From Macrostomum lignano (lineage: Eukaryota), in NCBI GenBank assembly GCA_002269645.1, contig NIVC01003922.1:1-64000 (forward strand): a DNA stretch of 64,000 nt. The letters run 5' to 3'. The position numbers and the translations under genes are program-made. Within the stretch, counting starts at the first letter, position 1. Every line of letters starts with the position of its first letter. This document shows positions 1 through 33,409 of the stretch, one piece after another. The notes beneath the pieces were generated by a model. That model was not told where the DNA came from and made no database searches. It worked only from the letters and a program-made list of their open reading frames with translations.

Positions 1-1351
1 CAGCTCTCTAATCAGACAATGGAAAATAGGCAAACCCCGGATAAGCAGATAAGCAGCAATTAGAGCACAAATTAGTAACAGGAACTTACCGGCAGCTGCA
101 CAGAGAGAGAGAGAGGGCGAGTGACGAGGCGGCTGTAGGCTGCAGTCAGGCAGACAGTGAAGCGGCGATGCGCTGGAGGCGACGAGGCGCTGATGTAGAT
201 CAGGCGATGCTGATGATGCTGGGGCGGTATCAGACCGCTGGCGATAGGCGAGCTCACTTGGGGAGCTAAGGATAACTTGGCGGTAACAGACGCGGACCGG
301 CAGGGATTTCGTCTTATAGACGAATGGCAGAACTCAATCTGACTGCAAGTCCAAAGAAGGACGAGGAGAGAAAAAAGGTTGAAGCGTAGAACGCCGAAAG
401 CACTGACGATTCTCATGCCGAAATCGCTTCCTTTTATAGACCTCACAGCCGCCTCCCAAGGTCGTTACCATGGCTCCCTCTCTCTGATTGGCTGCCGGCA
501 GAATGACGTCAGAATGAGTCATGATGAGAAGCATGAGACCGGCATAGCAATGAGAAATAGGGAAATTGCGCAATCCGGAGGTGGGGTGGGGGATAATTGG
601 CGCAGCGGGTGGTTGCGAAGTGTTGCGCAAGCAAACATTGAGAACAATAGGGCTGGGGTCGAGAACAAAGGAATTGGAAATCGGGATAATTGGGGAAACT
701 GAGAACAATGGAAAAGTAAACATTGGAGAAAAGGTGATAATTAGGTGCGAAAACGAGAACAAAAGAAAGAGAAAATCGAGAAAATGTGATAATTGGTGGG
801 GTCGAGAGACAAAAGAAGCAAAAACGAGAACAATAGAAGCGGAGGTGGGGTGGGTGTCGCATGAGAAATTTGGGGAGGAGAACAATGGCGTGAGAAAAGG
901 TTGCGCAAGAGAGGGGGATGAGTCATCGATGAATCACCGAGGGGGAGAGGGGGTCACACGACTTGCGTCACCGTTCGGGAGTTTGAGAGGGGATGGGGGA
1001 CGGTGAGCACACAAAATACTGTAAGTAGACACAGGGAAAGAGGGGACAGCGCAGGAAAAGAGTGCAGAGGCGAAAAAAAAGAGGAGATAGAGAAAGTACA
1101 GGAAGAATAGGGGGAAACAGAAAGATAGGTAGAGGGGGAGGTACAGAAAGGGTAGGGCTCCGGAAAGGCAGGTGTGGCGGCAGGAGAGACGGGACCAAGG
1201 CAGCAGGAGGGGTGCAGCAGAGCGAGAGTCTCCAGGCCCGGTCGGAGACCTGGCCGAGTCTCGACAGCTCTGTGCAGAGGGTGCACGGGATAGGAGGCAC
1301 TTTCGAAAAAGTTCCGCATGCCCTATCCGCGACCAGAGCGTGGTTACATCA
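1..1351 (-). repeat. 3' LTR (partial)
   Basis: Aligns by eye to 13038-14222 with substitutions and indels. Ends at GGTTACATCA (1342-1351). Carries the same TATA (430-439), CCAAT and TGACGTCA motifs. Confidence 0.88.
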
Positions 1352-1367
1352 CACCCCACTGCCTTTT
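1352..1367 (-). other. Polypurine tract
   Basis: Minus strand AAAAGGCAGTGGGGTG directly abuts the TGATGT start of the 3' LTR. Confidence 0.7.
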
Positions 1368-1949
1368 GTGACGGAACTGGTTCCGTCATCATCACTGCCC
1401 AACATGGAACCACACAGACGGGAGCGGGATCTCAACCGAACGTGAAATCACAGAATTAACAAACGCGAGCGGAATGGGAAAAGGCGATAAAATAGAGGGG
1501 ATAGCAATAAATTCACAAAACGAGATACATAGGTTGAAGTGCAATACAGAATTTCAAAAACTTCAACTGTTGCCGTGGCTAAAGTGGGAGGGGGGGAACC
1601 AGGCAGCGCAATAGTAGGGAGAAAAATAGCGAATTGTCAACAATAAATTATCATAATTGGATAGAAGCGCAGCTGGGGAGAGAGGAAACGGGGAAGGGTG
1701 AGGGAAGTGGGGAAAAAGAAGGGGGGAAGGGTTGCTAGCACACAGCCAAGGCAGAGCCTCGGGAGAACGACAATTACACAGTGGGAAAATACTAATGCAG
1801 CGCAGTAAATTAATAAGCTAATTTCGCCGGGAGTTCAACCGCACGGAGGCCTAGCGTCCTTGAAGGCTCGGACCCCGCTTCAGCCAGTCAGAGGGCTTCG
1901 GGGCGATCGGTTGTAGGCTGGGAGGCGCCGCGCCGGGCGCTGGCCACTG

Positions 1950-2062
1950 TATAAAAGGCGCCACTGATGACGGGAGCCGGCTGCCTGCAACCTACACGGA
2001 GTCGCAGTTTCCAACCAAGGCACTCAGCGCGATTTTCCAAACTATACAACTACTCGGTAAGT
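1950..2062 (+). promoter_or_regulatory. Internal antisense TATA box, short exon and splice donor
   Basis: TATAAAA at 1950-1956 after a GC-rich stretch. TCG|GTAAGT consensus donor at 2057. Confidence 0.4.
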
Positions 2063-2403
2063 CCCATCACCAACCTGATTTCCTTTCGCCTGTACGTTAA
2101 ACGAAATCCACCCACTTGCCATGCCTTTCATATTAAACTGAGCCAATTGCAGTAATAATATATGGCCTTTCTTACGGTAAAAGTAGTGAGCAGCCAACAC
2201 AGAGCCATTTTTAGGAACTTTTAGGATAATGACACAACAATGACTCGTATATTGGTTATTAAAGTTTAAAAATGAATATTAGGGAAGAACCGAATATTAA
2301 TAGGATAATTTCACCACACACACACGACAAACACACAACGCAAGGGGGCGGAAAGGCGGGTCGGACCGGCCGGCGGACGTCGCTCAGCAGGCAGTCGGCA
2401 TCC

Positions 2404-3749
2404 TTACTCGAAATGGGCCTCTTGATTTAGCTGGTACGGGCCATATGCCGCCACCTGAGCCATGGCACTGGCCCATGCTTCCACATAACGTTGGGCTGCC
2501 GCGGCCGTGAGCACCACTCGGTGCCATCGGCTAGGCAAGATGTCGTTGCGCAGCACGCCCCTCAACTGCGGCAGAGTCGGGATGCCCAGGGCCCGGCATT
2601 GGACGACAAAGGCCGCATTCCGTACTTGTTGCAGCCGTGTCAGAGTTGGTGCAGACAGGGCGGCTGCACGATTGCAAATGCTGCAAAGTGCCACGGGGCA
2701 CCTCGGCCAGGCCCGCGTAGCCGGGCTCAACGTCGCCCAGGGCCGCCAACACCCACCCACAGCGGCGATTGAACCGTTGCGAGAGAGTGGCGGCCCAGGC
2801 CACTGTGGCAAACGGCGCATAGAGGAGGGGCGCAGAGGCCGGCGCGGAGGCCGCAAGAATGCCGTCGTGGATGACGAGAGCCTCTTCCCATTCGGCGCCC
2901 TCGCTCAGGAAGCCCCAGAGCAGCCCTGGCAGGTCCGCAGGAAGCATGCCCCAGCGGCTGGCCAAGCTGGCCAGGCCAATCAATAGCCGGGCTCTCTGGT
3001 TGGTGTCAGTTGTCTAGTCATCTGAGAGGAGGCTGCGCAGCTGATGATCACCTTCTTGTAGACCGGCCGATCGCAGGTGCTGAAGATTGCTGTGATGGGG
3101 GCACAGGACGGCGGCCGGGCTGTCAGGTGTGATGGTTCCTCCTCCACAACCTTGCGGAGGAACTTGGCGGCCTGCCGGACTAGGTCGCCGAGGGCGTATT
3201 TGTAGGCGCTCTGGGCCGCTGCCTCGATGTACATTAACAGCGTATTGTCAACCAATCCCAGCAGGGCCGCTTTTGACAGGATGAGCAGACAGGGCCGGTC
3301 CAGGTTGTCGCGAAGTTGGCGCTCTAGAGTCGCGTGCCTGTCCTCGGCCTGGAGTGGGCCATGATAGGACTCGGGCCCGACCCAGTGCACCAGATCCATT
3401 GCTGTCGCCGAAGGTTCGCCAGCCACCTGACCCCAATCGACTTCTTCTCTTTGCAGGGCGATGTCCACACTTCGGCGGCTGTTGGCAGAACATCACGCAG
3501 GCGGCGGGCCGCCTCGCCGAATTCGGCCGCCATGTCCGAAATGTCCGCGGTGTCGCCCCCAGCATTGGCCGGGTCGATTGTCTCGTCACCTTCTTCGACC
3601 CTGGCGGAGGCCGCCGCTGGCGGCTCGGGGCCGTCCTCCGCCTCTTGGATGGCGTCACGGGGCCGCTTTCGGCTAACCGGGCTGGCAGGACGCTCAGACG
3701 GTAAGCTGGAGCATAGCTGAATTCGATTGATGGTAGGCTTCGTGTCCAT
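2404..3749 (-). pseudogene. Unknown ~450-aa protein, broken into four overlapping ORFs by frameshifts
   Basis: ORFs 3749-3324, 3468-2980, 2983-2531 and 2856-2404 tile one GC-rich coding-like stretch. ATG at 3749, TATAAG ~95 nt upstream (3843-3849). No family recognised. Confidence 0.55.
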
Positions 3750-3877
3750 GTCAAGCTGGATAGTTCATAGAATGCTTCAGCGATTGAATGACAGAATGAT
3801 TTCTCTGATTGATGATTTCCAGCTCTGGCAGGCGTGGGTCTTCTTATAGTGCCGGTATTATGCTTTCAACACTCCCC

Positions 3878-3939
3878 TACTTCCACTCTCCCCCGGAGAA
3901 CTCAAGTATGTTTGAGTTCTCCGGGGGAGAGTGGAAGTA
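3878..3939. repeat. Perfect 28-bp inverted repeat with 6-nt loop
   Basis: TACTTCCACTCTCCCCCGGAGAACTCAA (3878-3905), GTATGT, exact reverse complement (3912-3939). Confidence 0.95.
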
Positions 3940-3942
3940 AAT

Positions 3943-5964
3943 TGTAGTCTCCGTGGGAGAGACTTTGTGGCGATCATGTAGTCTCCCCTGGTCGTGTGGT
4001 CTCCCCTAGTGTTTTTTTATCTTTTGCGTTGCAATCTCCCGCATGAACTCTCCCCCACGAAGAGCCGTATTTAAAATATGTATCGGCACAAAAAAGTTCA
4101 AACATTTCTGTAATTTTCTAAACCAAAGTCAAAAAAAGATATATTTTCAGAGATTAGTAAATCCTAGTTAATTGTAAGTGATTAAATGAGCAGCATAAAT
4201 TTGACAGCACTTGCGGTTTAAGTGGCCAATTTTAGATGAACACCATTGATGCAACGGGAAATGTCCTCCAACTTGTACACGTTTCGGCCAAGCGCTGCAG
4301 TGATGGTGAAGATTTTACGGCTCCAGAGAGGCGACATTTTTCCACCTTTACGATCATCACGGCGCTTGTTGCGAAGCCGTACCTTGTCACCAACTTTGAA
4401 GTCGCTGAACTTGGCCGCTCCCAGTCGCTGCTGGTGTGTGCGTACCATGATGTGCTGAGCTCGGCGAATTCGGCGATAGAGTCGAAGCTTAGTTCGCGCG
4501 CGCTCTTCGTCCTTGATGCGCAGCCAGTCACGATCCAGCGTTGGCTCTAGGTAGCGCCTGTCTGCCTCTCCATCAGCGAAGTCGGAAGGAAGAACAGCGG
4601 TGTGTCCAAAAGCGGCCTTGAATGGAGAGACACCTGTGACCGAATGTTTTCTAGCATTGTATGACAGCTGAATCTGTCCCAGATGCGAGTCCCAGTCAGT
4701 TGCAGTTTCGTCACAGGATTTGCGGAGCATGAGGAGGCATGTCTGGTTGAGCCTCTCCGTTTGACCATTGCTTTGAGGGTGGTAGGAGCTGGTGACTCGA
4801 CGCTCCGATGCACCAGATTGCAAAAGTTGGTCGATGACATGGTTGCAAAATTCTCGACCTTGATCCGATAGAAGAACTCGTGGCCAACCAAAAATATTAA
4901 ACACCTCGCGCAAGACAGGCGATCGTCACTGCTTGGATGTTTGGTAGAGCTCGAAAAATGGCAAACTTGGTGAATTTGCATGTGATTGTCAGGATGTACT
5001 TGTTTCCCGCGGAAGACACGTTCGGCATAGTAATGCAGTCGATGCAGGTAAATCCGAAGAGATGCTCAGCCGAAGATGGGATGCTAATTGGGTGCAATTC
5101 ACGCGAGGCAGAGCGGAACTTCTTGTTATTTAGTTGACATGGCTCACAATGTTTTATGATATCCTCGCAGATGGCCGTGACATTAGATTCTGTGAAAAAT
5201 CGCTCGTTGAACTTGGTGATAGTAGTCCGAATGCCGCAATGTTTTCCTTCTAGGTGTAGTGCCAGCACCCTTTCCCGAGTCTCAGGCTCTGAAAAAATGA
5301 CGGGTCGCTCATTCTCGCTGCGTTGCTTCTGTGAGTTTTCCTTGTTCATGACTTTTTTCTGCAGTCTGCCGTCTCGAAGGGTAAAGGTCTTTGATTTTTC
5401 CCGTATTCTCCGCTTTAGATTCTTTGCTGCTGCACCATTCAGCTGCTCGGGAATGTCGACGTAAGAATTGGACAGCAAATAATGAAAAACCTGATTTAGC
5501 GAGGCAGTTGCCATTATTGCGGTCAGCAATGAATTAATTTTTATTGAGACTTGGGACTAATTGGTGCACGTGAATTAAATAAAGCTCAATTCTATTGATC
5601 GACCAGGTTTCAGCTCTACAACCCACCCTCCCTCCGAACCCACCAATTCTAAACTAAATCAGTGAGTTGGAATTCAGATTCATAAAATTGCGTCACCAGA
5701 ATATGTCACAGCTACTCATAGTGCTGCAAGACCTGGGGCTTAAAGCTTAAATGATTTGCCTGCGCTAATGTGCAAGGTGCGTGTAGGGGTGCGAAAGTGT
5801 GCTCACCGAACGTTTATGGATAAGTGGGGGAGGGTGCAAGTAAGGGAGAGACTAGAAAGTCCGACTAATGTCGTGACTTGCCGTCTCCCCTAGGGAGCGA
5901 ATTCAAGTCACTCGACGATCGTTTTGTACTCTCCGGGGGAGAGCGCATGAGGTGGGAGAGTACA
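3943..5964 (-). mobile_element. Candidate Ginger-like DNA transposon around the integrase
   Basis: TGTAGTCTCC at 3943 versus reverse complement TGTACTCTCC ending at 5964. CTCTCC/GGAGAG motifs cluster at both ends. Flanks AAAT/AAGT give only a 3/4 TSD match. Confidence 0.4.
4218..5514 (-). pseudogene. Free-standing Gypsy/Ginger-type DDE integrase with one frameshift near 4913
   Basis: H2C2 zinc motif (LHLEGKHCG...CEPCQ), core IDCI...SDQGREF...YHPQSNGQTER, C-terminal FKVGDKVRL...GKMSPLW. Own ATG at 5514 and no RT/RH upstream. Confidence 0.88.
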
Positions 5965-6419
5965 AAGTCTGACACCGGGGCTGGCTTCTCATTGGTTGAG
6001 CACACTGGGAGGCACACCTGCTGCGGCCGGGGTCGCCGTTGGCTTGGGACCGCTCGCTTTAGTCTCCGTGCGCTCTGATTGGCTGGTTCCGCCACTTCCT
6101 GTTTCCTCACCTGTGAGCAGGGGCAGGCACCCGAGACCACCTCCGTTCGCGCCCGCGGCAGATCCGTACTCCAGCCGACAGAGATCGCACTCCCACCTCA
6201 CATGCACACATTCAGATCAGGCACACAAATTAATTTGGTTAATATGAATAGAAGAGGGATTTGGGAGATTAGACTCCGGAGGATTAATGATGAAGCGGCC
6301 CAACTCCCTTCGATTTCTTCCTTCAACGCCACGCACACGCAGTTCTCATCCATGCCTCCGAGACCCTCATAAACTTAACAGCCGAAAGAATTTGAAAGAG
6401 GAATTAATCATTAATTTGA

Positions 6420-6715
6420 CTGCCACCAGTTTGATGTACTATTATAAAAGAGAAAGGGGAACCTACCACCATCTTGGCGCATTACTAAAGAAAAGAAAAG
6501 GAGGATCAGCCACCATTTTGAGAGAGGTTGCTAGGGAAAACTGCCACCAATTGTACATTAACAGGGAAGAGAAAGAGGGAACTCGTCACCAATTAGAGTG
6601 GATTGCACGGGGAAACTGCCACCATTTGCCCTTCTACCAGAGGAGAGGAAGACGAAAAACTGCCATCACTTAGAGGTGTATTATTAAAAGAAGGCGGGGA
6701 ATAAGGCTACCACTA
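6420..6715 (-). repeat. Array of ~8 degenerate U5/PBS-like motifs (CTGCCACCA on +) spaced 33-47 bp
   Basis: Motifs at 6420, 6463, 6507, 6541, 6583, 6616, 6660, 6707. 6420-6438 is 18/19 identical to the true LTR-PBS junction at 12172-12190. Confidence 0.8.
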
Positions 6716-6879
6716 CTTGATCACCTAGAGCTCAAGAGAAGGAAAGGGAATGAAGAAATGAAGAAACCCCCAAGAAGGCCACTATCACACGCCATAAAGT
6801 TAAGATCCCCATCTATCTACATCCTAATAATTTGCTAGTTTCCTAACTCCTATCTTATCCTTTAAATTCTTGCGTCCAG

Positions 6880-7286
6880 GGCTCCGACAGGTCACCGCCG
6901 AGCCCATTGTTGAAGAGGAGTCCGACTACGAAGCGCCCGAGGGCAGCCTTTCCGGGCCGGACACCCACTCCGATTCTGGGTCGGCCGCACCACCAGGCGG
7001 AGTCGGCGCCGAGGCGCCCGAGCCGCGCGGTAATCGGGCCGCCAGCGCGCCAGCGCCCGGGGCCAGTTGGTCGCCGGCGCCGCCACCGCTGTCAGGACGA
7101 GCCCGACCTCAGCCGCCGGTGGCGACCGTGGCACCGGTAGCCGCTGCCCCACAGTTCTCGCCAGCCTCTATGGTGGAGACCGATGGCTCCTGGCACTTGG
7201 TCGTGCTGGCGACGGCCCTGGTAGCCGGTCTCACCATGCATTGGCTGCTGCTCTTGGAGCTGTTTCTGCGGCTTCCCAACTGCTGA
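6880..7286 (+). CDS. Antisense exon encoding Pro/Ala-rich stalk and C-terminal hydrophobic anchor
   Basis: Pyrimidine tract plus CAG acceptors at 6879 and 6890. Open frame ends WHLVVLATALVAGLTMHWLLLLELFLRLPNC*. No ATG of its own upstream of the stalk. Confidence 0.45.
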
Positions 7287-7876
7287 TACTAATCCTTCTC
7301 ACGCTGACTTAATCTACCTACTCGAAACTTAATTGCCCCACTAACTGACTTTAATTACTTACCTGACCTACAGTGAGTCTATACCTAGCCTACTCTAAAA
7401 TAAACATTGCTCCCCATCTGTCTACTAAACTTAATTACAATACACACCCCACTATTGCATCATCGAAACCAATTAAAATTTTCCCCAAATCTGACTTTCA
7501 CAAAGTGTGAACAAACACACGAAATCAGACCTAAAGGTGCTAATTTCCTACGGTCCCAGACTTCCATTGTTCCCAGAAAATCTTAAACAGCGGGACAGGA
7601 CCTCCTGTGGAGCAGACCCATAGAAATTTTACTAGTTTCCAAGTTAATATTTACTGTTAGGGAATTAACGCATACCGTACGGGCCTAATTTTCGAGCTAA
7701 AATCTTAGATATTTAAACAACACCAACGAGCACGAGGTCACAACATAAATTCGAGTAATAGAGGGCATACGTAAATACGCGAAAAGCGGTCTCCAACGGG
7801 GCAACACGAGCAAAATTTCGACACGCGAATCGGGGGGGGGAATTAAGCAATCACTGGCTAGCTACCGATCTGTTAC

Positions 7877-8400
7877 TCAGCGGGGGTCGAATGGGAGACT
7901 CACACCTAGCAAGTAAACATTTTCTGTTCGATAGTCTATGATAGCATGCGCACTGGCTAGAAAAGCACTACCCAGGAGGGAAACTGCTGCTGAATTGCCA
8001 ACGACCAGAAAGAGGATTCTCACCTCTTCTAGCCCAATAACTGCTGTGAGGGTGGCCTGGCCTAGCATCTCTAATTCATTGCCCGTGTAGGACACGGCCT
8101 TCACACATGGGGGCTCCAGGGCCTCCACACTCTGTCCGGTAATTTTAGTAAAGTCTTTGACTGTTAGCAAAGACAGCGCACTGCCCCATCTACCAGGAGG
8201 CGGGTGGGAACATTCTCAATTGGCAACTCTACAACAATATCTCTCCCGCGTTGTCCTCTAGCTGGTCTTGGCTGATAGAAATCGGGTACCTTCTCAAATC
8301 TAAACTTCTTGCTGGGCGGGCGTGGCAGGTTAATCTGGGCCCTAGAGAGGGAACGGGGCTGAGTTCGGGCCGGGCCATTCAGCCCTCCCACGGGTTTCCC
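7877..8400 (-). pseudogene. Retropepsin-like aspartic protease (pol frame), frameshift at the catalytic motif, stop right after the domain
   Basis: VVELPIENVPTRLLVD[x]GSALSLL...SYTGNELEMLG...SLLGSAFLASAHAIIDY. Frame break near 8185. No RT motifs downstream. Confidence 0.8.
8338..8400 (-). promoter_or_regulatory. -1 ribosomal frameshift signal: G GGA AAC plus putative pseudoknot
   Basis: Slippery heptamer at 8400-8394, 8-nt spacer, stem GGGCUGA/UCAGCCC, loop GGCCC complementary to downstream GGGCC (8342-8338). The -1 frame is the protease frame. Confidence 0.75.
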
Positions 8401-9827
8401 GAACCCGGGGGCTCTTCAGGCGTGGGAGGAGGAGGCATCAGAGCTTGCGCGCGCAGCTAGCTGGGCGAGCCTCTCCTGCCTCTCCCTGGTAGCCTCGTCT
8501 AACATATCTCTGCCCCAATCCGCTAAATCTTGCCTATGGCGATCGGGTGGCGCACGAAGCTGCAATTGTTGCTGCTGCACACCCGGCGCCGGCGGCGTGG
8601 GCGCCTCCTGAATTGCAAGCGGCGGGGGCTGGGATTGGCGCCAGTTCCTACTGCTATTAGAGCCGCCCTGCCCCTGCCTCCAGTTCCTGTTGGGAGTGGC
8701 GGGGCGAGGGGGTCTCATCTGCTGGGGCAGCTGGGCAACAGACTCTGCTGTCGCCTTCATAGTTTCATTGAGCTGCACCAGCTGGTTGCGCAGATCCTTT
8801 TGCGTTTGCTCTAGCGCGCCCAGCCTCTCTTGCATCTCTGATAGGCCGTCACCGTCCTCCTCCGTCTCGTCAGCTTCCTGGTTCACCATCCTGACCCACT
8901 TGCGAGGGGGCCTGGGTGGCTGCTGAGGTTGCAGACGGACTTCGGTGCGGGACTCAGACTTGGGCGGGCCACTACTGTCCCATTTCCCGGCTAAGTCTGC
9001 GGCTTCTAACAGGGCTTGCTGCTGTTCTAACACCTGCTCAATTGTCTGCCAGCGACGGCTCAACAGATCTTGTCTGACCTGGCGGGGGAGCTTAGCGTGT
9101 TCCAAGTAGGTGTACACGATTTCTTGTTCTCTCTGCTCACCCTGAATCTGAGGAAACATGGCCGTTATCTGAGATCTTATCATAGCAGCAAAAGCACTAT
9201 GTGATTGGCCGGGTTTCTGGCTCAGATTCTTCAGCTTATTTCTCTTAGCCAGATCAGTGTTGGCCTCGCCCAACTGCTCGCCTAATCTAGATACGAACTG
9301 CTCAAATGGCAATTGCCCGTCCAATCCTAAGGCTAAGTTCTGAAATTCGCCTGGGAGGTGCGAGATGAGCACCTGTTTCCTAGCCTGATCTCCTACAGTT
9401 CTCTCCGCGTCCAGCTTGTAGATCATTCTCTCTACCCATTGCACAAAACAGTGTTCGCCGGGAGAGAACTTCTCTACGTAGATTTTCGGCCTCTGGGCGT
9501 CTTGGCCCATGTTTAGCTGGTTTAACGCATTGGCTATAGCAGCAACTAAGTCTCCTAGCTGCGGGACTGCCTGAGGAGGATTCTGGGCTGCGTCCGGGGA
9601 GCAGCGGCGGCTGCTGCGTCACCCTGATTGGGAGCGGGAGCTGCTACTCCTTCATCTGGTTCCTCAACTACTACTGCTTCTGGAGGCTGAGGGACCTGGT
9701 TACCAGCGGCTGCGGCCATTGCGGCTGCGGGGGCGGCAACTGCTGGGGTGTCAGCGGCCGAGGGTGGTTGACCAGGGGCGTCTGCGCACACAGCTTCTAC
9801 GACCCTATCTCCACGCGCCCGTGACAT
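8379..9827 (-). pseudogene. Gag-like protein, with frameshifts near 9580 and 8450
   Basis: ATG at 9827, Ala/Pro-rich N-terminus, capsid-like core (EKFSPGEHCFVQWVERM...LKNLSQKPGQSHSAFAAMIR), coiled coil. Corrected C-terminus ...PPGSGNPWEG*. Confidence 0.8.
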
Positions 9828-12161
9828 GTGAATGCCGGATAGCTGGGGGAGTACCCACTACCGGGAAGGAAAAGAAAAGAAAGCCGGGGCAACTACAGGT
9901 AAAGACCGAAAAGTTGACCCGAAACACACAAACACAGACAAAACTCACACACTTGCGGCGTCGAAGAAAACAAATTGAAAAACGGGTGGCTCCACATAAT
10001 TCCAGTTAGGCAGTCCTAACGGCTTCACTCGGCAAAGCACACAAACTCAACTGCGGCTACCACTACCAGTTGTCTATGGCACATCCTGACAGGGAAAAAT
10101 TGGCTATTCAGAGAGACTTGACCTTCATTTTGCGGCCATGCTAGGGAACCCAAATGCCGACCGTAAACGGACTTACGGCACCTGTACAAATTCTCCCCTA
10201 GGGTTGCGCGCCGGACCCCATTTCCTTAAGAAAGCTACTACGAAGAAGCGTTGGCGCCTGGACCCAAAAACCCAAGTGGCGGGAGCAATCGCCATGGAGG
10301 TCCTCCCACTTTACTGCCCTTGCACAGCCGGAAAACCGTCGGAGTCCAGTGGGGCTTCCACCTCAGGACTACCAATCTTGTACACGCAGCTTCACAAAAG
10401 GCGGGAATCCAGCTCCCCTACGTCTAGCAGAATCCACAAAAACCAAGACCTCCCCTTTCTGTTCAGAGCGAAGGCGCGCAGCGGGAGTCCAGACTAAACT
10501 GTCCCCGAAGTTTTCAGGTTAGGCGGATTACAAGCCTGAAACTCTCGCCCGCTTTCCTAGGATAAACAGACCTAAGTGAGTATCTTCCTGAAATGCTTGC
10601 CCCTCCGATACTCCACCTTTGCTGCAGCTCGAAATAGCATACTTGGGACCTTTATCTGATGGCGGAGAAAGTCCTACAGTTGTCAGCCTCTCCACTTTAC
10701 TGTACTTGAACGCCCGGTTCTACCAGGAGACAGCGGTACCTCCATCTAGGTTATTCCAAGTTGCCAGAGACGTCAACCCGTCTTATTGACCTTGCGGGGC
10801 ACTGGGGTGGCACTCTATGTACCGGGGCTTTTACATTAGGGGACTGCATGCAACCCTGCGTCTAAGCGCTTAGTGGGCTGCAGTGGCCAGAGGGGAAAAG
10901 AGTTGCACAATAGCGCCTTCCTGGGCCAGGCTGACAAGTCGGGCAGGAGCGCCGTTCTACCGGGTCGGGCTGATTGGCACACCCACCTCCCCTATCAGAC
11001 TGACAGCAGGGGGGGGGAGGAATTACTAAAGGAGGAGAATGCAGCAGGAAAAATTACGAGATCACTGGGGGCCACCAGACTTCCAGTACACCATTCCAAT
11101 ACTCACTGAACTCCACTATCAATAGGATACTATGGGATCTACTATTTCCAGCCACTGCACCAGCCCAAATGCAACCAAAGCAGTTACTACCGGGTCTGCA
11201 ATGCAGTGGGGAGAGTCAGCAGACACGTTGGGATCGAATCCCAGCCATGAAGGCACCAGGGGTTGCCGCCGAATTCAGGTCCGGGCTGATCGCAGGTATT
11301 CCATAGGAGGTGACACTTTTTTTAGCCCGAGATTTTTGAGTCACACTGATACCCTACAGAGATACAATCACACCGCTATTCCCATTCCTGCGAGACTTTG
11401 GTATCCCCCAATGTTTCCAAGGCCATGACTACTGCTTCCCTTACTATGCATATATAGCGAGTTCCCCCTAGCCCTTGATAGCTGTTCATTCTAATGGACA
11501 AACAAAACACGCTCCGGTCTCTACGCATTTCTAGGATTAACTGAGCGATCAGGGAGAGCGACTGTTACACTCCCCCGAGTAAAAGAAAGAGGTAGGACAA
11601 AGGAAAGAAATGCTTCGCTTCTAGCTTCCCTGTGCTTGCGTGATGAGGCTTCCGTACCTGGCTGGCTGTCCACCTCAACACTCACACAGTTCTGCTGTAG
11701 GCTAGGCGAGAGAAAGAAAGGGAGGGGAAATAAAGCATATTGCCATGAAATAGAAAGTGAGTCCGGAAAATTCACTTTCGCAGTTCTTCACACACTCCGT
11801 TACCAGGTAGCTATTCTGATTGTAATCAAATCCGCTCGTCTACCACTTCACACTTTCTAGCGCTGAAGCTGATCGGCTAAATTAATTTTAAGTTGAATCA
11901 GGGGCTTTCGGCGAATGAATGAATTTGGAAATTTCGAATGAATTGAACGAATTCGCAGCCCGAAAAATTTGAAAAATTACATTAATATTTTTGGATTTTG
12001 TTGCCTCACGCCATGGGAGAAGAGAATGACGATTGGCGATTTTTACGATTGATAGATTTAGACATGGCACTCTTTGCGCTTCGGCCACCATTCTGAGGGA
12101 TGCCACAGGTGCACTTGTCACATCTAAACCACCAGTCCGAAACTCAGCACTGTTTGCACCA

Positions 12162-12180
12162 AATCCCACCGCTGCCACCA
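12162..12180 (-). other. Primer binding site, tRNA-Leu type
   Basis: Minus strand TGGTGGCAGCGGTGGGATT, 3 nt after the LTR end. Complementary to the 3' end (AATCCCACCGCTGCCA+CCA) of the canonical animal tRNA-Leu(AAG). Confidence 0.88.
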
Positions 12181-12183
12181 TTT

Positions 12184-14222
12184 TGATGTAACCGCCCTTG
12201 TCGCCTGCCCGCTCCGTAGAGAGACGAACGCATGACTAGAGGGGGCAATGACCGTAGGCTGCCTATGACCGGGCAATGACCTGACGGACCTCCAGCACCA
12301 GACTGTCCCGCCCACATGATTAGTAGCTTTGGTAGCGCTTCGTGACCAGAGGGCCAAGGACCCACATGGACCCCACCTGTAGCCAAGGTGCAATAGTTGG
12401 TCACTCGGTCATGGTATGACCGAGTGGCTGCCACCACTCTATGTGACCTGGCGCACCTGGATCTTTCTACCAGACCTCTAGAGGCTAGAGCCCCGCCTGG
12501 GATGGTTACCAGGAGATTTAGGCTAACAGGGGAGACACATGCAGCCGAGTACAGGGACTCTGCTTGGGGCATGATCGGGAACTCTGGGCTCAATCTGGAG
12601 GATTTCTCAGCAGGGGATCCTTTGTGACTGTGAGCGAGGCTGACTTACGACCTTGATTACTAAGAGTAGTATGAGGCGAACATGTACTGTCTACAGTTTA
12701 GATTGCTCAGGGCGAAGGGACGCGTCAGTATGGGGTTGCAACCTTCCTACTGCCATTCTGTGCCAAGTGTGCCAACTGCACGCACACGCGGCCCCGCAGC
12801 ACGCACTCACAGGCGGGCTTTGCACGGGGAGAGGCCATTAGCTTACCCAAACTTTCCTATGCTTTGCCACCCCGGGAGAAAGGCTTAGCAAGCCATGAGT
12901 GAAATGATGGTGGAAGAGTGAATAATGATGAAGTTATTTAATAGTTAATAATTCGGCCCTTAGGCAAATAATCAGGCAATTAGGCGGCTTCACTATTAAG
13001 TAAAAATATAGCAAAAGATACGGTATTACAACTGGCTCAGCTCTCTAATCAGACAATGGAGAAAATAGGCAAACTCCGGATAAGCAAAGGCAATTGGAGC
13101 ACAAATCAGTAATAGGAACTTACCGGCAGCTGCACAGAGAGAGAGAGAGAGAGAGAGAGGCGGAGTGACCGAGGGCGGCTGTAGGCTGCAGTCAGGCAGA
13201 TGGTGAAGCGGCGATGCGCTGAGGCGACGAGGCGCTGGTGTAGGAGCCCGAAGGTGGGCAAAAGTTGAGTCTTCTCATGCCGAAAACCGCCTCCTTTTAT
13301 AGCCTTCCCAGCCGCCGCTCCAAGGTCGTTCCCATGGCTCCCTCTCTCTGATTGGCTGCCGGCCGAATGACGTCAGAATGAGTCATGATGAGAAACATGA
13401 GACCGGCATAGCAACATGAGAAATAGGGAAATTGTGCAATCCGGAGGTGGGGTGGGGGATAATTGGCGCAGCGGGTGGTCGCGAAAGTGTTGCGCAAGCA
13501 AACATTGAGAACAATGGGGCCGGGGTCGAGAACAAAGGAATTGGAAATCGGGGATAATTGAGGAGAATCAAGAACAATGGAAAAGTAAACATTGGAGAAA
13601 AGGTGATAATTAGGTGCGAAAACGAGAACAAAAGAAAGAGAAAATCGGAGAAAATGCGATAATTGGTGGGGGTAGAGAGAACAAAAGAATCAAAAACGAG
13701 AACAATAGAAGCGGAGGTGGGGTGGGTGTCGCATGAGAAATTTGGGGAGGAGAACAATGGCGTGAGAAAAGGTTGCGCAAGAGAGGGGGATGAGTCATCG
13801 ATGAGTCATCCGGGGGAAGAAGGGGTCACACGACTTGCGTCACCGTTTGGGAGTTTGGGAAAGGATGGGAGGACGGTGAGCACACAACATACTGTAAGTA
13901 GACGTAGAGAAAGAGGGGACAGCGCAAGAATAGAGTGCAGAGAGAGACAAAAAAGAGGGGGGATAGGGAAAGTACAAGAAGAATAGGGTGGAGTGCAGGG
14001 GAGATAAGGTAGAGGGGAGGGTACAGAGAGGGACAGGGAGCTCCGGAAAGGCAGGTGTGGCGGCAGGGGAGACGGAACCAAGGCAGCAGGGGGGTGCAGC
14101 AGAGCGGGAGTCTCCAGGCCTGGTCGGAAACCTGGCCGAGTCTCGACGGCTCTGTGCAGGGGGTACACGGGATAGGAGGCACTTTCGAAAAAGTTCCTAT
14201 GCCCTATCCCATGGTTACATCA
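12184..14222 (-). repeat. 5' LTR, 2039 bp
   Basis: 10-bp terminal inverted repeat TGATGTAACC/GGTTACATCA, adjacent PBS, homology to 1-1351. Confidence 0.88.
13293..13375 (-). promoter_or_regulatory. LTR promoter: TATA, CCAAT, CRE
   Basis: Minus strand CTATAAAAGG (13293-13302), CAGCCAATCA (~13350), TGACGTCA (13368-13375). All are conserved in the other LTR. A donor CCG|GTAAGT lies downstream at ~13124. Confidence 0.65.
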
Positions 14223-14709
14223 AATGATTAAAATGTAGATCCAATAGAAGTTTAAGCAGAAAAAAGTTTACTGTATATTTATTGTCAGCCATTCTGGTAT
14301 TTTGGTTAGTTAAATTACTTTAAATGTACAGGTTTGTGTGCGTCATCAATATGGCAGTTCCAGGTTGCAGTGTTTTACTGTAAGTACATGTAGTAAAATT
14401 AAATTTGTTCTATATTAGTTTCCGCCAATGACTGCGCCTCTACACTAATTCAAAAGAGAAAGTTCAGAAAGCACACTGTTTAGCAAATTTTAAAAAAGGC
14501 AGCAATTTAAGCTATTTTGAAATGCTTATTTGAGGATTGACAAAAAATCAGATCAAACCCCAATGTTATTAGAGCAAGACAATATTAAATCACAAACAAA
14601 CAGTTATTTAGAATATTAAAAGATAATTTTCCACTGAAAGCTCAGCACTTGCTCTTTGGATTTTATAACTTGACTCGCAGATTGCAACTGTGGTGGGTGC
14701 TATTCAGTA

Positions 14710-15243
14710 CTATTGCTTGTGCTGCTGCTGTCGCTGCTGCTGCTGTTGCTGCTTCTCCTGCTGCTGCTGTGCCTGCTGCTCCTGCCGCTGTTGGGCGTAG
14801 TATTGCTTCACTGCCTCGCAGCGAGACACTCAGTGATTTTCCCCGCAGAAGTAGCATTCTATTTCTGTGAAAGAAGACAGGCATGGTGAAATAGTCAGTT
14901 TTTTAATTTAACACAATCGTGTTTGATTTATACTTAAGCCCAGAATTAAATTCAATAATTTGACTAAGACTGATTCGTACGATTGGTTCGTTTGCTTCAA
15001 AGAGTGAAGAAAGAGAGAAAGCAAATGTGTGTACGCGATCTGTATTTAGAACTCTACGGGTTGTTTGCTTCTAAGAGTTAACAAGAAAGAAGAAAGTTTT
15101 TGTAAGTGTTAAGTATTTATAAAACTCTACACTTCTAAGAGAGGTGAAATGAAAAAGCAGTAACAATACGTACGATACTTACTTCGGCAAGGTTGGTTCT
15201 GGCGGCGTCGAGGCCGGCCGCCTTCGATGATGGTAATTTTCAT
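14710..15243 (-). pseudogene. Two-exon mini-gene: CCHC zinc knuckle plus polyQ, with in-frame TGA
   Basis: Exon 15243-15183 (GTAAGT donor) joins 14864-14710 (TTTCACAG acceptor) to give MKITIIEGGRPRRRQNQPCRKIECYFCGENH*VSRCEAVKQYYAQQRQEQQ.... TATAAATA at ~15352-15360. Confidence 0.55.
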
Positions 15244-16319
15244 AAGATTGAGTTTAGTAGCAAGTAGCAAGTAGATTCAGTAGCAAGAAGAATAGTAGTA
15301 GTAATAGTAAGAAATTCAGTAGCGAACAGAAAATGGGCAAAAAGTGAGAATATATTTATAGCAAAACGTTTTGGGGGTGGTTGGTGGGTTGGCCACGCAG
15401 GGCTGGGGCAGTCAAATGGAGCTAAGCTCAAGAGAGTGACAGCAGTGGCTGGATTGGTTGGGCTAAGCCATGCGGGGGATTGCGGGTTGAGGGGTAAAGC
15501 TCACGCTGGCAGAGAGAAGGAGCGAGAGCACTATGTTGGGTGGGTGGATTAAGCCAAGCTGGGCCAGGGGAGGTTGAGTTAAAACCAGTTTAAGCTAGTA
15601 AGTAGCAATACTCGGCAGTTTTTAATTGTCGCGACTTTCTTAGTCATGTCAAAGACTTAGTTGTAAAATCCGGGTTGGGGTTGATTGCAAGTAAGAATTA
15701 GGAGGGGTGGTAGAGTGTAGAGTGTGCGACTGAGAAGATAGGCGAGATTATAGAGCCAATCAGAAGGCGGGTACAGAGAGAGAAAAGAATAACAAGACTG
15801 AACTGGATAGAGAGGGACGGAAAATAAAGTAAACCCAAACAAGTCCTCATGAACTGGATAAATCTATCTAAATATACGAAATCCATTTACCAAATGACTG
15901 ACTAATAATTCTGACTAAATTGACTAACTAAATGACTCATTGTTTAAGTGTGAAAAACGATAATCGCAGATAACCTTGAGAGGGGTTGGCCCTGGCAGTT
16001 CAATTAGCCTCGCGAGATCACGCTATTGTAAGGTCTAGACCCCACCCACCCCAGCGGATTTAGTCTGGAAACAAAGAAATCGCAGACAGGGGAGGGGTAT
16101 CTGCATTCTGATTGGCTGTTTAGTGGTGTGGGTTAACTGGTGGTGATTGGGGTGTGGGCTTGACTATTGCAACTTAAAATGTAAAATGTAAATGTAAATG
16201 TAAAAGTCAAAATGTATTGCAAATTGTGTTTTTTAATCTGCTATTTCTACTGAAGTATTTTGCACTGCAACATTTCTAGAAACTCTTTCTATTTTCTATG
16301 TTTTGTTTCGACTTTGTTA

Positions 16320-17620
16320 AAACTGAACAACTTAGCAACAACGGCGTCTACAATCAGCAAGAAGATAAGGGCTAAAATCTCCGGCCTGAAACTGGGCTAC
16401 ATGAATGCAGCGGTTACTGACCTCGTGACTGAGTTGAAGGAGATCAAGTCGTACACGAAAAACGAAGTTCGAAACGAAGTTATTTCATTCGTCTTGATAG
16501 ACGACTCGGCTGAGATGAGAGTCAGCGTTTTCGGCAAGGACCTGCGGTCTATTTGGGAAGTTTGCAATACTTTCGATGCTATTCGCATAGCCGGCGGAAT
16601 GGTAAAGACTTCGGATCCGAGATACAACAGCACGAATAATCCTATGGAGGTGTCTCTTTCAGTTGACTCCAAGGGATCAATATATCGAAGCAATGAAGTT
16701 CCGACTGTTAGTGAACGGGCGTGTAACTATACGCGAATAAGCGACCTTCAAAACGTACGCCTGCAAGGTTGAGTTGCATTGGATCTATCTACTTGTTTGT
16801 ATTGTATAGACAGACAGTATAATACAATATATATGTACAATAGACATAATAGTATAGAAAATATGAATTGTATCGGCAACTGTGTAGCACTGTAGTTGTT
16901 CGGCTTTTATAAATTATTTTGACTAGATTAGCAATCCATTCTATGCCTTCATCCTTTGATGTTGGCTAGACTAGCAGTCCATTATATTCATTCGTCCATT
17001 GATGTAGGTAGGATTAAATTAACTTCAAAAAGCGTTTTGAGGTTTTAAAAGACCTCAAAAAACCCTTTTGTCCCCTCTTTATTTGCCTTTTATTGGAAAT
17101 GTCGATGTCCTTGGAGCAATCGACACACTGCAGCAGCCCGAGGAAGTTGTGACGAAGGCTGGGAAGCGGATAAACGTAGCCAGTGACTCTTGTTGACCAG
17201 TCCTGTCGTTCTGTCTCCTGCACGTTTTGGGGGTCGTCCTCCGATCAAACTGTCAATTGGAGTGTCGGCGACATTTTGTCGATAAGACGAGCAAAAGTAC
17301 AGGAGTACGCCGGTGCTGTTGTACTTGGATGTACTTGCTCTGAAGTTCGGCTCAACTTGGACGACACCGAGGTTACGACTTTGACTGACTGGTACACGAA
17401 TACCAGTACATGATACCAGTACTGGTACATGAAACTCAGTTTCAATCTCTGGGTGCTCCGTGTCCATCAGGCGCGGTTGGTGGCTCTTCTGACCAAAGGG
17501 AAAACAACAGGCGAGTTGTTATGCAACTACCGGTTTCGCACGAATCTTTCCGGGATGTAGACGAAATTGCCTTGAACTTTGGAGAAGAAATAAAATTGCG
17601 CGTGTTCATTGTACATGTAA
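16320..17620 (+). pseudogene. RPA70-like tandem OB-fold ssDNA-binding protein, degraded
   Basis: First OB fold (SFVLIDDSAEMRVSVFG...) ends at a donor at 16768. Second has VDVLGAID...VTKAGK and TLVDQSCRSVSCTFWG...SIRRAKVQEY...LTDWY. There is a frameshift near 17180 and the expected acceptor reads TG. Confidence 0.7.
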
Positions 17621-28225: not shown

Positions 28226-28560
28226 TGCAATTGCCGCATTTGCAGTTGAAAACGTGAAGGCCAGACGGAGTTTACAATGAGAAGAGAGGGTGTGGAGAAC
28301 AATGGAGCGCTGCATGGCATTGACAGTGCAAGTGTTGACTTCATCTGACAATGCGCTTGCCAACTTGGTGAACAGCGGCGGACAAGCAGAGACCCTGAGG
28401 AGTAAACAGTTTTGTAATTCATAGATGATTGCGATCTGGGGGATGCTTGCTATCTTGGGGATGCTTTTTTAGGGGGAATGCCTGCTATCTTTGCAAAGGC
28501 TTTATTTGTATAATTGCCACATCGCTGCTCACGGATGATGGAAAATGCCCCACCACTGCC
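28226..28560 (+). repeat. ~335-bp segment duplicated at ~31612-31945
   Basis: Near-identical, and each copy runs into the same ~30-bp satellite. Confidence 0.9.
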
Positions 28561-29490
28561 TACGGATGCTGGAGAATACCATCACTGCCTACGGATGCTG
28601 GAGAATGACCATCACTCCCTACAGGTGCTGGAGAATGCTCCACCACTGACTACGGATGCTGGAGAGTGCCCATCACAGCCCACGGATGCTGGAGAATACC
28701 ATCACTGCCTACGGGTGCTGGAGAATGTCGATTACTGCCTACGGATGATGGAGAGTGCCCATCACTGCCTATGGATGATGGAGAATGATCCATCACTGCC
28801 TACGGATGCTGGAGAATGTCGATCACTGCCTACGGATGATGGAGAATGATCCATCACTGCCTACGGATGCTGGAGAATGTCGATCACTGCCTAGGGATGC
28901 TGAAGAATGACCATCACTCCCTACAGGTGCTGGAGAATGCTCCACCACTGACTACGGATGCTGGAGAGTGCCCATCACAGCCTACGGATGCTGGAGAATA
29001 CCATCACTGCCTACGGATGCTGGAGAATGACCATCACTCCCTACAGGTGCTGGAGAATGCTCCACCACTGACTACGGATGCTGGAGAGTGCCCATCACAG
29101 CCTACGGATGCTGGAGAATACCATCACTGCCTACGGATGCTGGAGAATGACCATCACTCCCTACAGGTGCTGGAGAATGCTCCACCACTGACTACGGATG
29201 CTGGAGAGTGCCCATCACAGCCTACGGATGCTGGAGAATACCATCACTGCCTACGGATGCTGGAGAATGACCATCACTCCCTACAGGTGCTGGAGAATGC
29301 TCCACCACTGCCTACGGATGCTGGAGAGTGCCCATCACAGCCTACGGATGCTGGAGAATACCATCACTGCCTACGGATGCTGGAGAGTGCCCATCACTGC
29401 CTACGGATGCTGGAGAATGTCGATCACTGCCTACAGATGCTGGAGAATACTCCATCACTGCCTACGGATGCTGGAGAATGTCGATCACTG
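28540..29490. repeat. ~30-bp minisatellite (CTGGAGAAT..CATCACTGCCTACGGATG) with 120-bp higher-order repeat
   Basis: 29+30+31+30 bp monomers recur as a 120-bp unit, seen as a 40-aa repeat in the ORF track. Confidence 0.95.
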
Positions 29491-30659
29491 CTTTTAGTAA
29501 TCCGAAGGCTTGTCTCAGATACACAGCGAATGATCATCCTATGACCCATTGTCCTATTGTTGCAAAAAAACGGTTTTCAGTAACTTATTTTTCAGTTCTA
29601 AAATATGGTGTTAACCCAAATTTGTCAACCTTGTCCCGAGACTCATTGTATGGAAGAGGGAGTTCGTGAGTTTAGGCACCGACTTATTTTCCTCTGCTCC
29701 TTTCATTCCCTAGCTAGTCACTAGAGTGCCAAAGGCGAACTATTCAGATGCATTAGATGGTCAAGAGACGATCTTGTACAACAGACGTAGATATAAACAT
29801 AATTCCTGCTTGAAAGCATATAATGGCAGTGTATAATTAGAGTTGGTAATTAATAAACTCACCAAATTGAGCTGCTTGCCAAGACACTGATGAATTCAAA
29901 CAAAGTAGCCTACGAACGTAGCAAGTGGTTCAGGCTGCAGTTCTAAACACATCTTTATAAGGGCTAGCAGGCACCCCAACCCCACCCTTCGATCGATCGA
30001 TAAAATTTAGAATAGACACTGCGCGCGGGTTTGGCCAGGGTAAGGAAATTGCCATGTCAGTCACCCCCGACCTCCCCCAGGTGTGGTGGGCGCACGATCT
30101 CGCACGATATATTGTGCGAGATGAAATGTAGATCTTAGCCTAATTAGCGCAGAAACGAACCCCACCCTGTCTAATGTGTTAATTAACCGTGCACACAATG
30201 AGCTGGCTCTTTGAATTTCATGATTTTCAGTGAGATCTAGTTTACTTCGCTTTGGTTGCTTTTGATTTGCATTTTGCACGTCAATTTTCATTTCATGTTG
30301 CATGAGTCGGTGACTCATTTGAGTTGATTGTACCCTGTGGGCCTGAACGAGAGTTTGAAAAACCTGCGTCATTTGCCTTTCCATTTGCGATTGATTAAGC
30401 GTGCACAGAAATGACAAACTTGGTTAATTATGATAACTTATTTCGAGAATTAGTCTGTGTAAGTGAGCTCATTTCAGTAGCTCTGTCAATGCTCTAGGGT
30501 GGCTGTTTTCAATTTTGCTGAGTAATTGTGTGCAAAAAAAACAATATATTATACTCGAATGTCGAGAACACACCTAGGTCGTATTGCACATCTTCACCAG
30601 AGTTCCCCTTCAAATTCGGCTTGTGCACCAAAAACGTATGCATCTCCCTCTGTCCTATA

Positions 30660-31025
30660 TCTCCGCCCTCACCCGCCCTCTTCTTCCGCCTCTGCCCACC
30701 GCTCTCACCTACCCTCTCTTTTCCCTAGCCTGCCCTTTTCCTCCGCCCTCTACCGCCGTCTTCCTCCGCCCTCTTCTTCCGCCTTCGCCCACCGCCCTCT
30801 CCCTCCCCCCTAGCCTGCCATCTTCCTCCACCCTCTCTCGCCCTCTTCTTCCGCCCTCTACCGCCGTCTTCCTCCGCCCTCTTCTTCCGCCTTCGCCCAC
30901 CGCCCTCTCCCTCCCCCCTAGCCTGCCATCTTCCTCCACCCTCTCTCGCCCTCTTCTCCCGACCTCTCACGCCGTCTTCCTCCGCCGTCTTCCTCCGCCC
31001 TCTTCCTCTGCCCTCTCCCTCCGCC
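30660..31025. repeat. CT-rich low-complexity tandem repeat
   Basis: Recurrent CCGCCCTCTTCTTCCGCC units. Confidence 0.9.
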
Positions 31026-31919
31026 ATCTGTTCTTGTTTTCTAAATTTTATTTTTAGTTTTGCAGCATTGTAAAATAATTTTCAGAAAGTTAAGTTTAAA
31101 TTTTACAGCGGAAATTAGTTGTGATTTCTGATTGAACAGTGCAAGTCTCATAAAAATCGGTTAAGCCCTTTTTTATCTAATCGATTACATAGAGCCAAAC
31201 AAAAAATTTTCACCTGGGAACCAATGACTGCCGTAAGTACATGTATTTGATTTTTTAAAGACGATGCACTGGAAGGCGAATTTGACAGGGCAAACTCTCA
31301 GTTGATACGAGTATGTTTGCTGATGCGGTCGGAAAAGTAAAACAAAAATATTATTATTATATAAATGAATGTCTTTCATAATATGCTGTGGAAGAAGACT
31401 GTTAAATAAAATGATTTTTTTGAGTAAAAAAAATTTTAAACAGATTTTGTTATAGTTTGAGCTGAACTTCAACTATAAATGGACAGTTGGTTAATGTATC
31501 TGTACAATGTAGCAATGTCCTGCCACCCCTCTGTCATGCAATAGGCTTGCACATAGAGGTCAGTGGGAACTACAAGTTCAGCGGGAAACACGCGAGCTCA
31601 GTCCGAACGACTGCAATTGCCGCATTTGCAGTTGAAAACGTGAAGGCCCGACGGAGTTTACAATGAGAAGAGAGGGTGTGGAGAACAATGGGGCGCTGCA
31701 TGGCATTGACAGTACAAGTGTTGACTTCATCTGACAATGCGCTTGCCAACTTGGTGAACAGCGGCGGACAAGCAGAGACCCTGAGGAGTAAACAGTTTTG
31801 TAATTCATAGATGATTGCGATCTGGGGATTGCTTGCTATCTTGGGGATGCTTTTTTAGGGGGAATGCCTGCTATCTTTGCAAAGGCTTTATTTGTATAAT
31901 TGCCACATCGCTGCTCACG

Positions 31920-32362
31920 GATGATGGAGAATGCCCCACCACTGCCTACGGATGCTGGAGAATACCATCACTGCCTACGGATGCTGGATAATGCTCCATC
32001 ACTGCCTAGGGATGCTGAAGAATGATCCATCACTGCCTACGGATGCTGGAGAATGCTCCATCACTGCCTACGGATGCTGGAGAATGACCATCACTCCCTA
32101 CAGGTGCTGGAAAATCCTTCATCATTGCCTACGGATGCTGGAGAGTGCCCATCACTGCCTACGGATGCTGGAGAGTGCCCATCACTGCCTACGGATGCTG
32201 GAGAATGACCATCACTCCCTACAGGTGCTGGAGAATGACCATCACTCCCTACAGGTGCTGGAGAATGACCATCACTCCCTACAGGAGCTGGAGAATGCTG
32301 CAGCACTGGCACAGGATGATGGAGAATGCTCCATCACTGCCTACGGATGCTGGAGAATGTCT
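31920..32362. repeat. Second array of the ~30-bp minisatellite
   Basis: Same monomer as 28540-29490 without the 120-bp order. Confidence 0.95.
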
Positions 32363-33169: not shown

Positions 33170-33409
33170 GAGAGTCAGGGGGACACAGCAGGATGAGGGG
33201 GGCACAGCAGGGTCAGGGGGACACAGCAGGGTCAGGGGGACACAGCAGGGTCAGGGGGATCGACACAGCAGGGTCAGGGGGACACAGCAGGGTCAGGGGG
33301 ACACAGCAGGATCAGGGGGACACAGCAGGGTCAGGGGGACACAGCAGGGTCAGGGGGACACAGCAGGGTCAGGGGGACACAGCAGGGTCAGGGGACACAG
33401 CAGGGTCAG
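33170..33409. repeat. 19-bp minisatellite (ACACAGCAGGGTCAGGGGG) in the PICK1 3' UTR region
   Basis: About 12 copies between the stop codon (33461) and a minus-strand AATAAA near 33040. Confidence 0.92.

Follow-up and report, generated by a model that had tools for sequence, protein, structure and literature searches.

The window analysed here is the whole 64,000-nucleotide stretch of contig NIVC01003922.1 of Macrostomum lignano (assembly GCA_002269645.1, positions 1 to 64,000 of the forward strand). Positions 1-14222, at the start of the contig (C3922), hold one damaged copy of a retrotransposon with long terminal repeats (LTRs), which lies on the minus strand and belongs to a family named S1 in the following. 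S1 is described together with H1, a family with the same LTRs that carries the enzymes missing from S1 and lacks the protease that S1 encodes. The features of the copy in the window are listed below.

1-1351, minus strand: 3' LTR, truncated by the contig start (full LTR of the family about 2.2 kb); 94% identity with the LTR of H1 in a gap-rich alignment
1352-1367, minus strand: polypurine tract, read from the sequence; identical in S1 and H1 copies
1352-2179, minus strand: 3' untranslated region, common to H1 and S1
1950 and 2057, plus strand: TATA-like box and splice-donor-like site within the 3' untranslated region; putative promoter
2404-3749, minus strand: ORF449, accessory gene
3701-3706, plus strand: antisense splice donor; the matching site in copy C4075 has a GT..AG joint in run X9
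3843-3848, minus strand: putative TATA box of ORF449, retained in the C100 copy (75% diverged)
3856-5974, minus strand: nested Ginger1-like DNA transposon with transposase at 5514-4218; not a component of the S1 family
5975-6330, minus strand: upstream promoter region of ORF449, missing together with ORF449 from the short variant
6420-6715, minus strand: array of primer-site-like 9-mers
6880-7286, plus strand: antisense coding exon of 134 codons
7877-8400, minus strand: aspartic protease in the -1 frame, with a slippery-type site at 8394-8400, then a stop (at 7877)
8379-9827, minus strand: gag, with a capsid domain and without zinc knuckle; first 45 residues as in H1
9828-12162, minus strand: 5' leader of 2.3 kb, 98% identical to H1
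12163-12180, minus strand: primer binding site, read from the sequence
12184-14222, minus strand: 5' LTR, about 190 bp short and 92-94% identical to the family; older or recombined variant

The LTRs, primer site, polypurine tract, gag and protease named in a preliminary description of this DNA were confirmed. The primer site is presumably of the tRNA-Leu type. No tRNA gene was called in the window by ARAGORN, not even at 11225-11255, where a short stretch of the leader resembles a tRNA arm. About 6.5 kb separate the protease stop from the polypurine tract. The absence of reverse transcriptase (RT) and RNase H, also stated in that description, was confirmed: profiles built from 13 complete Gypsy relatives gave no RT or RNase H match in the six frames of 1-14222, and only the protease and one integrase were matched. 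The 13 profile loci were drawn from 20 relative loci, of which 18 had a protease motif and two were broken copies; one intact locus was kept per family.

The copy in the window is damaged. Its gag carries frameshifts near 8460 and 9600, its protease near 8180, its ORF449 (open in sister copies) near 2660-2680, 3000 and 3480, and the transposase of the nested insert near 4900-4925. Over the first 3.9 kb, alignment with contig C616 at this locus showed 51 gap positions, which are likely to be contig-end errors. The two LTRs were 87-91% alike, compared with 99.0-99.9% in other copies, and the target duplications at the ends did not match. The divergent 5' LTR and the unmatched duplication point to recombination with an older LTR. 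An age estimate from the LTR divergence was rejected, because the two LTRs derive from different variants. A region including the 5' LTR, 11217-17419, is absent from the same locus in C616.

The S1 family

S1 is a young multi-copy family of Gypsy type, composed of Gag, a frameshifted protease and a 449-aa gene, without RT, RNase H and integrase. A genome search with the protease region gave 143 candidates, of which the best 40 were scored, and a search with ORF449 gave 37. The S1 copies examined were colinear with the window and had no space for pol, which contradicts the possibility, raised earlier, that other copies have a normal pol and lack the accessory genes. The copies came in two forms, of which the long one includes ORF449 and the short one is without window positions 2263-6331. 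LTRs with TG...CA ends, primer site, polypurine tract and target duplication were all present in S1 and H1, as expected for Ty3/Gypsy LTR retrotransposons. A 4-bp target duplication was found in six of seven S1 and four of four H1 copies with both flanks (10 of 11 in total). The LTR pairs within single copies differed by only 0.04-0.6% substitutions in S1, in H1 and in the second pair of families described below, S2 and H2.

The ratio of nonsynonymous to synonymous substitution rates (dN/dS) between subfamilies was 0.10 for gag, 0.12 for the protease (from few changes) and 0.11 for ORF449 against the C100 subfamily; overall values for gag, protease and the accessory gene were 0.10-0.16. By this measure gag, protease and ORF449 of S1 are under purifying selection. 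Among the best candidates scored, full-length matches to the S1 protease at an identity of at least 39% lay in frames of at most 229 aa, and none lay inside a pol. With intact gag and protease, many copies, and neither RT, RNase H nor integrase, S1 resembles the known semi-autonomous Gag-Pro elements, and it coincides with H1 in primer site and LTR ends as well as in promoter and time of activity. The partner of such an element is expected to be complete; H1 and H2, however, have no protease.

Short S1 copies on C4958 (L018-L019) and C546 (L028-L029) formed head-to-tail arrays sharing LTRs, with a unit of about 9 kb and a flank common to both contigs. An older, internally deleted piece of the gag-end and protease region (about 700 bp, about 80% identity) was seen in dozens of places inside another dispersed repeat, on contigs that include C1651, C93, C1113, C2295, C1237 and C566 (L119, L121-L125).

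Partner families without a protease

H1 was found through the gag search as a family with the same LTR, a distant gag and frames of up to 1553 codons. Ten near-identical copies were recovered, two pairs of which have a common flank. Compared with S1, H1 showed LTRs of 96.4-99.7% identity, a leader of 98% identity, the same primer site and 3' region, and an identical stretch of the first 45 Gag residues; the H1 copy C1115 and the S1 copy C4075 were 99.1% identical over the LTR and 3' untranslated region. H1 encodes one protein of 1543 aa in a single frame, with capsid, RVT_1, RT_RNaseH, Integrase_H2C2 and rve in that order, which is the Gypsy-type arrangement of RT, RNase H and integrase. A helper as considered in the preliminary description, with the same LTR and primer site, therefore exists, but it is incomplete in its turn, being without the protease found in S1, and S1 must borrow RNase H and integrase in addition to RT.

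The lack of a protease was seen by several approaches. No catalytic motif was found in the whole H1 protein and no Pfam protease match was obtained, while the S1 and S2 proteases and two controls did match. A protease profile from the 13 relatives detected S1 and S2 copies with E values from 7e-14 to 8e-4, and gave no match at E<1 in the six frames of any H locus, leader and LTR included. The spacer, RT, RNase H and integrase profiles matched the H loci, and among the S loci only the Ginger insert was matched. The junction between capsid and RT was covered in nine of the ten H1 copies and in both H2 copies, none with a protease motif; the tenth H1 copy stops at a contig end. In H1 the capsid is followed by a short proline-rich linker and the spacer domain, with about 25-40 residues between, and in the 13 controls the catalytic Asp of the protease precedes the YxDD motif of RT by 427-447 aa. 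The aspartic protease that an autonomous Gypsy element has between Gag and RT is thus missing from H1 and H2. Over its full length the H capsid is homologous to that of S and the relatives (hhalign probability 96.4, 159 columns), with 27% identity between S1 and H1 and 22-27% between S and H capsids in general. A zinc knuckle is absent from the coding strand of both halves.

The best candidates of the genome searches included no complete element with these LTRs. Of 58 exact LTR-primer junctions, 45 led into S1, nine into H1 and none into a complete element; the four unassigned ones comprised two at contig ends and two with short LTR pieces only. After H1 and H2, the nearest RTs were 38-47% identical, and none of 22 relative loci had the LTR or leader of the first pair, while one had an adjoining piece of the LTR of the second. 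C85 was considered as a close complete relative and rejected owing to a far lower RT score and a different layout. A capsid profile gave no match among longer database proteins, a negative result of little weight, and no protease-less partner was found outside this genome. Contigs from sequencing runs whose RNA status is a guess covered S1, with patches of H1 in X1 and X9 and none in X14 or X21; read depth in these runs cannot rank genes, and co-expression cannot be read from the coverage.

A second pair with the same split was observed. S2 has a different LTR of 2 kb, a Gag with 42-45% identity to S1 and a protease (14 matches at 39-41% to the S1 protease), and no pol. H2, represented by two copies, has the S2 LTR and leader and a pol with 67% DNA identity to H1, and no protease. 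H1 and H2 were 71% identical in RT-RNase H and 73% in integrase. The H1 and H2 RTs formed a clade with support of 99/100, in a tree limited to relatives from this genome and three database proteins, and the S1 and S2 proteases formed a clade with 98/99. The S and H capsids formed one clade (100/100) against 12 relatives, which held when any of the four was dropped, and trees with S1+H1 or S2+H2 as clades were rejected (p-AU 0.012, approximately unbiased test). Since H1 groups with H2, and S1 with S2, the split would be older than the two pairs. A separate origin of the split within each pair is rejected on these trees, although long branches weaken the tests. The 3' end of H2 was 97.8% identical to one S2 variant and 80% to another, and carries the last 27 codons of the S2 accessory gene; it reads as a recombination footprint from S2.

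Accessory genes and the nested transposon

The reading frame of about 450 aa with its own TATA box, noted previously, was confirmed as ORF449, with 449 aa. A colinear homologue of 388-391 aa is present in S2 (23% identity, pairwise E 2e-4). Judged from these comparisons ORF449 is old, being in both S1 and S2, conserved, and dispensable, being absent from the short form. Its database relatives were three unnamed proteins in two clusters; no Pfam family, no word-search homologue and no notable sequence match to solved structures were found. A single-sequence structure model was unusable (predicted local distance difference test, pLDDT, 37). A seven-sequence model reached pLDDT 60 and was confident for a helical core, spanning about residues 51-190. 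Foldseek searches with this model gave nothing at E<=0.001 in the PDB and viral libraries, and with VIA the best Z was 7.7, to generic helical bundles, with no evidence of a new fold. Against the post-pol open reading frames of the complete relatives (loci examined), the best E of an ORF449 profile was 1.3. A 72% identical, broken ORF449 module with its promoter region, without LTR or gag, lies at L011:4093-5907 (C201). This module may be mobile in its own right or a deletion remnant; as an autonomous ORF449 carrier it was rejected, with no LTR, gag or Gypsy pol adjoining.

The antisense membrane-anchor exon of the preliminary description was recovered at 6880-7286. Its frame was open in four variants with dN/dS of 0.22-0.33, and its C-terminal segment is hydrophobic (Kyte-Doolittle 19-mer maximum 2.1). 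A GT..AG joint between the donor at 3701 and the acceptor of this exon was seen in one contig of run X9 and was absent from three other runs, which hints that an antisense transcript might be spliced. In S2, an open antisense stretch lies between protease and accessory gene on the strand opposite to that of gag (L115:5850-6400), in the same place as the S1 exon; the two may correspond, by position only. The earlier report of primer-site mimics was borne out by six matches with at most one mismatch, against a shuffle mean of 0.02 and with none of 300 shuffles reaching six. This array was found in S1 only; as a guess, it could be a decoy for tRNA-fragment silencing or a set of spare priming sites. 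ORF449 and the antisense membrane protein would be dispensable or accessory helpers, with host expression, silencing or trafficking as their most likely target. All three modules (ORF449, antisense exon and array) are components of the S1 family, whereas the integrase is confined to one locus; ORF449 is absent from the short form.

The stand-alone integrase, previously taken as part of the element, belongs to an insert of 2119 bp flanked by a CCGG target duplication (3852-3855 and 5975-5978). It occurred inside S1 on three contigs only, the window, C616 and C3989, which are one locus: C616 and C3989 have a common left flank, C616 and the window a common downstream flank, and identity was 99.7-100%. 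A clean empty site was found in seven of seven long copies of the same subfamily, and the divergent C100 copy also lacks the insert. Copies of the insert are also free elsewhere in the genome, one of them (C89/C2463) with its own CCGG duplication. The 5' end TGTCA fits TGTNR, and the transposase combines Integrase_H2C2 (9e-7) with a DDE core (rve 7e-9 in a free copy). The ends are only loosely inverted, the second end is not TGT, the YPYY and GPY/F motifs are degenerate by eye, and no OTU or Ulp1 tail was found in the insert. Ginger1 transposons have a 4-bp duplication (CCGG/CCGT), a TGTNR 5' end, a transposase with H2C2 and DDE domains and terminal inverted repeats of 40-270 bp (PMC2836005). 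The insert agrees with these in its duplication, 5' end and transposase, and differs in its length (2.1 kb against 2.6-7 kb), its imperfect inverted ends, its degenerate GPY/F and the missing OTU/Ulp1 (PMC2836005). On these sequence features the integrase is that of a Ginger1-like DNA transposon unrelated to the S1 family. The insert sits between the TATA box of ORF449 and upstream CCAAT-like elements, and probably disables the ORF449 promoter in the window copy.

Some further features of the genome were recorded. Several complete Gypsy families have a post-pol reading frame whose first domain is of DnaJ type (E down to 5e-18), joined in one of them by a chromodomain (1e-12) and in one by a TatD-like domain (5e-5); the loci are L079:7350-8198, L088:7480-8358, L090:1502-2485, L092:1399-2343 and L058:2257-3930. 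Another clade of complete relatives has a post-pol reading frame of 260-435 aa with a common C-terminal motif, without significant Pfam match in the six scanned (L080-L082, L084-L087, L089, L091, L093, L094). Dense minisatellite blocks with units of 13-61 bp occupy window positions 28500-41850 and 56100-63100, one 29-bp unit being present in 99 copies.

Probable complementary halves: interpretation, alternatives and known systems

In Gypsy elements and retroviruses, the protease is required within the particle for the release of RT and integrase from the polyprotein, and Gag is needed in large excess over Pol. The two families are complementary in gene content and share cis sequences, both have inserted recently, and a second pair shows the same split. 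S1 and H1 are probably the two components of one LTR retrotransposon, with the window holding a damaged copy of the Gag-protease half, H1 being the enzyme half with the same LTRs, and each supplying what the other lacks. The RNAs of both would be made from the same LTR promoter. S1 would give abundant Gag and, by -1 frameshifting, little Gag-protease, and the capsid domain that H1 has kept, in diverged form, would bring the H1 polyprotein into the S1 shell. The S1 protease would then free RT and integrase of H in trans, and the freed enzymes would copy and integrate either RNA, because the two RNAs agree in primer site, polypurine tract and LTR ends. In mixed particles, template switching could keep the shared ends uniform and the coding cores apart. 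Co-packaging and cleavage in trans are inferred from sequence. Going further, we lean slightly towards a natural segmented LTR retrotransposon, in which an ancestral genome was split in two, neither segment is mobile alone, the division has lasted into two LTR-matched pairs (RT 71%), and the duplicated capsid of the enzyme segment serves as a loading tag.

Several points weigh against this two-component interpretation. Co-assembly is not self-evident between capsids of such low identity; a complex prediction for the S1 and H1 capsid domains, run without alignments and scoring 0.00, speaks neither for nor against it. Both H2 copies are frameshifted in the capsid-coding part. Long-branch attraction may affect both the capsid clade and the AU test, given the length of the H branches. 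Cleavage of H could be the work of a host enzyme or of the protease from a different, co-expressed Gypsy family, or H could function without being cut; the need for a protease is itself carried over from Ty3 and retroviruses. The shared ends could have been homogenised by conversion at the DNA level. The assembly is partly redundant for H1, with five distinct sites seen, the genome searches scored best candidates only, so that a rare complete element could escape, and a single genome was studied.

The main rival is one-way parasitism, in which H is self-sufficient, its polyprotein working uncut or being processed by an unrelated protease or one from the host, while S would be a usual semi-autonomous passenger like Sabrina_SA or gag-protease-only ATHILA. 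This would fit the full-length capsid homologue retained by H, the frequency of the S architecture beside complete partners in plants and the abundance of other protease-bearing Gypsy families in this genome. We regard it as rather unlikely, since both pairs have conserved the S protease even though Gag is all that S offers it to cut, the region missing from H is exactly the region that S kept, and H differs from all 13 controls in encoding Gag-Pol in a single frame, with no free Gag, no zinc knuckle and no protease. Less probable still is that S and H are both deletion derivatives of a complete master element missed by the assembly or the searches. The restriction to best candidates, the four unassigned junctions and the many copies at contig ends leave room for such an element, but the S and H capsids are too different (27%) to be two cuts of one gene, the nearest RTs and the 22 relative loci offer no source with the first LTR or leader (one has an adjacent piece of the second LTR), and the unassigned junctions fall at contig ends or in short LTR pieces. 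The satellite element first proposed, with its own particle and its own integrase and borrowing only RT, drew on the window and two sister contigs, in which the LTRs enclose an integrase-like gene that has an ATG of its own; it is refuted by the single locus, the empty CCGG site in other copies and the insert's own ends and free copies, which fit Ginger1.

Barley BARE-2 (a case like rice Tos17, below), soybean SNARE/SARE and peanut Feral/FIDEL are parallels. The S1 type itself, Gag with protease and an extra gene and no pol, is already known from ATHILA and Sabrina_SA, and its earlier presentation as an undescribed architecture does not hold. Gag-protease-only ATHILA elements of Brassicaceae arose by a recurrent 3-kb deletion from extant five-gene elements (bioRxiv 10.64898/2026.03.20.713144). 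Like S1 they have gag and protease without RT, RNase H and integrase, often an (ATHILA-specific) extra gene, and outnumber their partner; their five-gene source survives, whereas the S1 partner has no protease and a capsid of 27% identity. In wheat, RLG_Sabrina_SA with RLG_Wilma (PMC9744471) and RLG_Quinta with RLG_Cereba (PMC11302176) each join a semi-autonomous GAG-Pro or GAG+DUF element to a partner in long co-evolution. Sabrina_SA and Quinta resemble S1 in that primer site and LTR ends match those of the partner and a divergent gag lies within conserved flanks, and mutualism through Gag supply has been proposed. Wilma and Cereba are described as having a full protein set and dependence is one-way, whereas here H is without protease and dependence would be mutual. 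Rice Tos17 (PMC3977881) is, like H, an enzyme-bearing, incomplete, clean-cut element that borrows a function in trans; it is a Copia element without gag, thought to rely on the complete Lullaby, while H keeps a capsid, has no protease and has a partner that is also incomplete. Lentiviral split packaging (PMC12390563) places gag-pro and pol on separate constructs with the same division of labour; RT and integrase can thus be provided separately from Gag-protease, and such a division is workable; it is man-made and uses Vpr loading, whereas here the diverged capsid domain would load and both halves would be packaged genomes. A pair with both members incomplete and complementary, or with a protease-less member, was not found in the open-access literature searched.

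Pairs of autonomous and non-autonomous elements are usually viewed as host and parasite, with any help from the parasite at most optional. If the two-component interpretation is true, S1 and H1 would be selfish elements that are obliged to cooperate, a counterpart among retroelements of the segmented viruses, in which the ratio of Gag to enzymes would be set by the copy number and expression of two genomes and not by frameshifting alone. The origin and stability of multipartite genomes would become testable. An RT-first pipeline calls an element complete on the basis of LTR, RT, RNase H and integrase (PMC12801592). Such pipelines would class H as autonomous and miss S, and pairs of this kind may be overlooked elsewhere.

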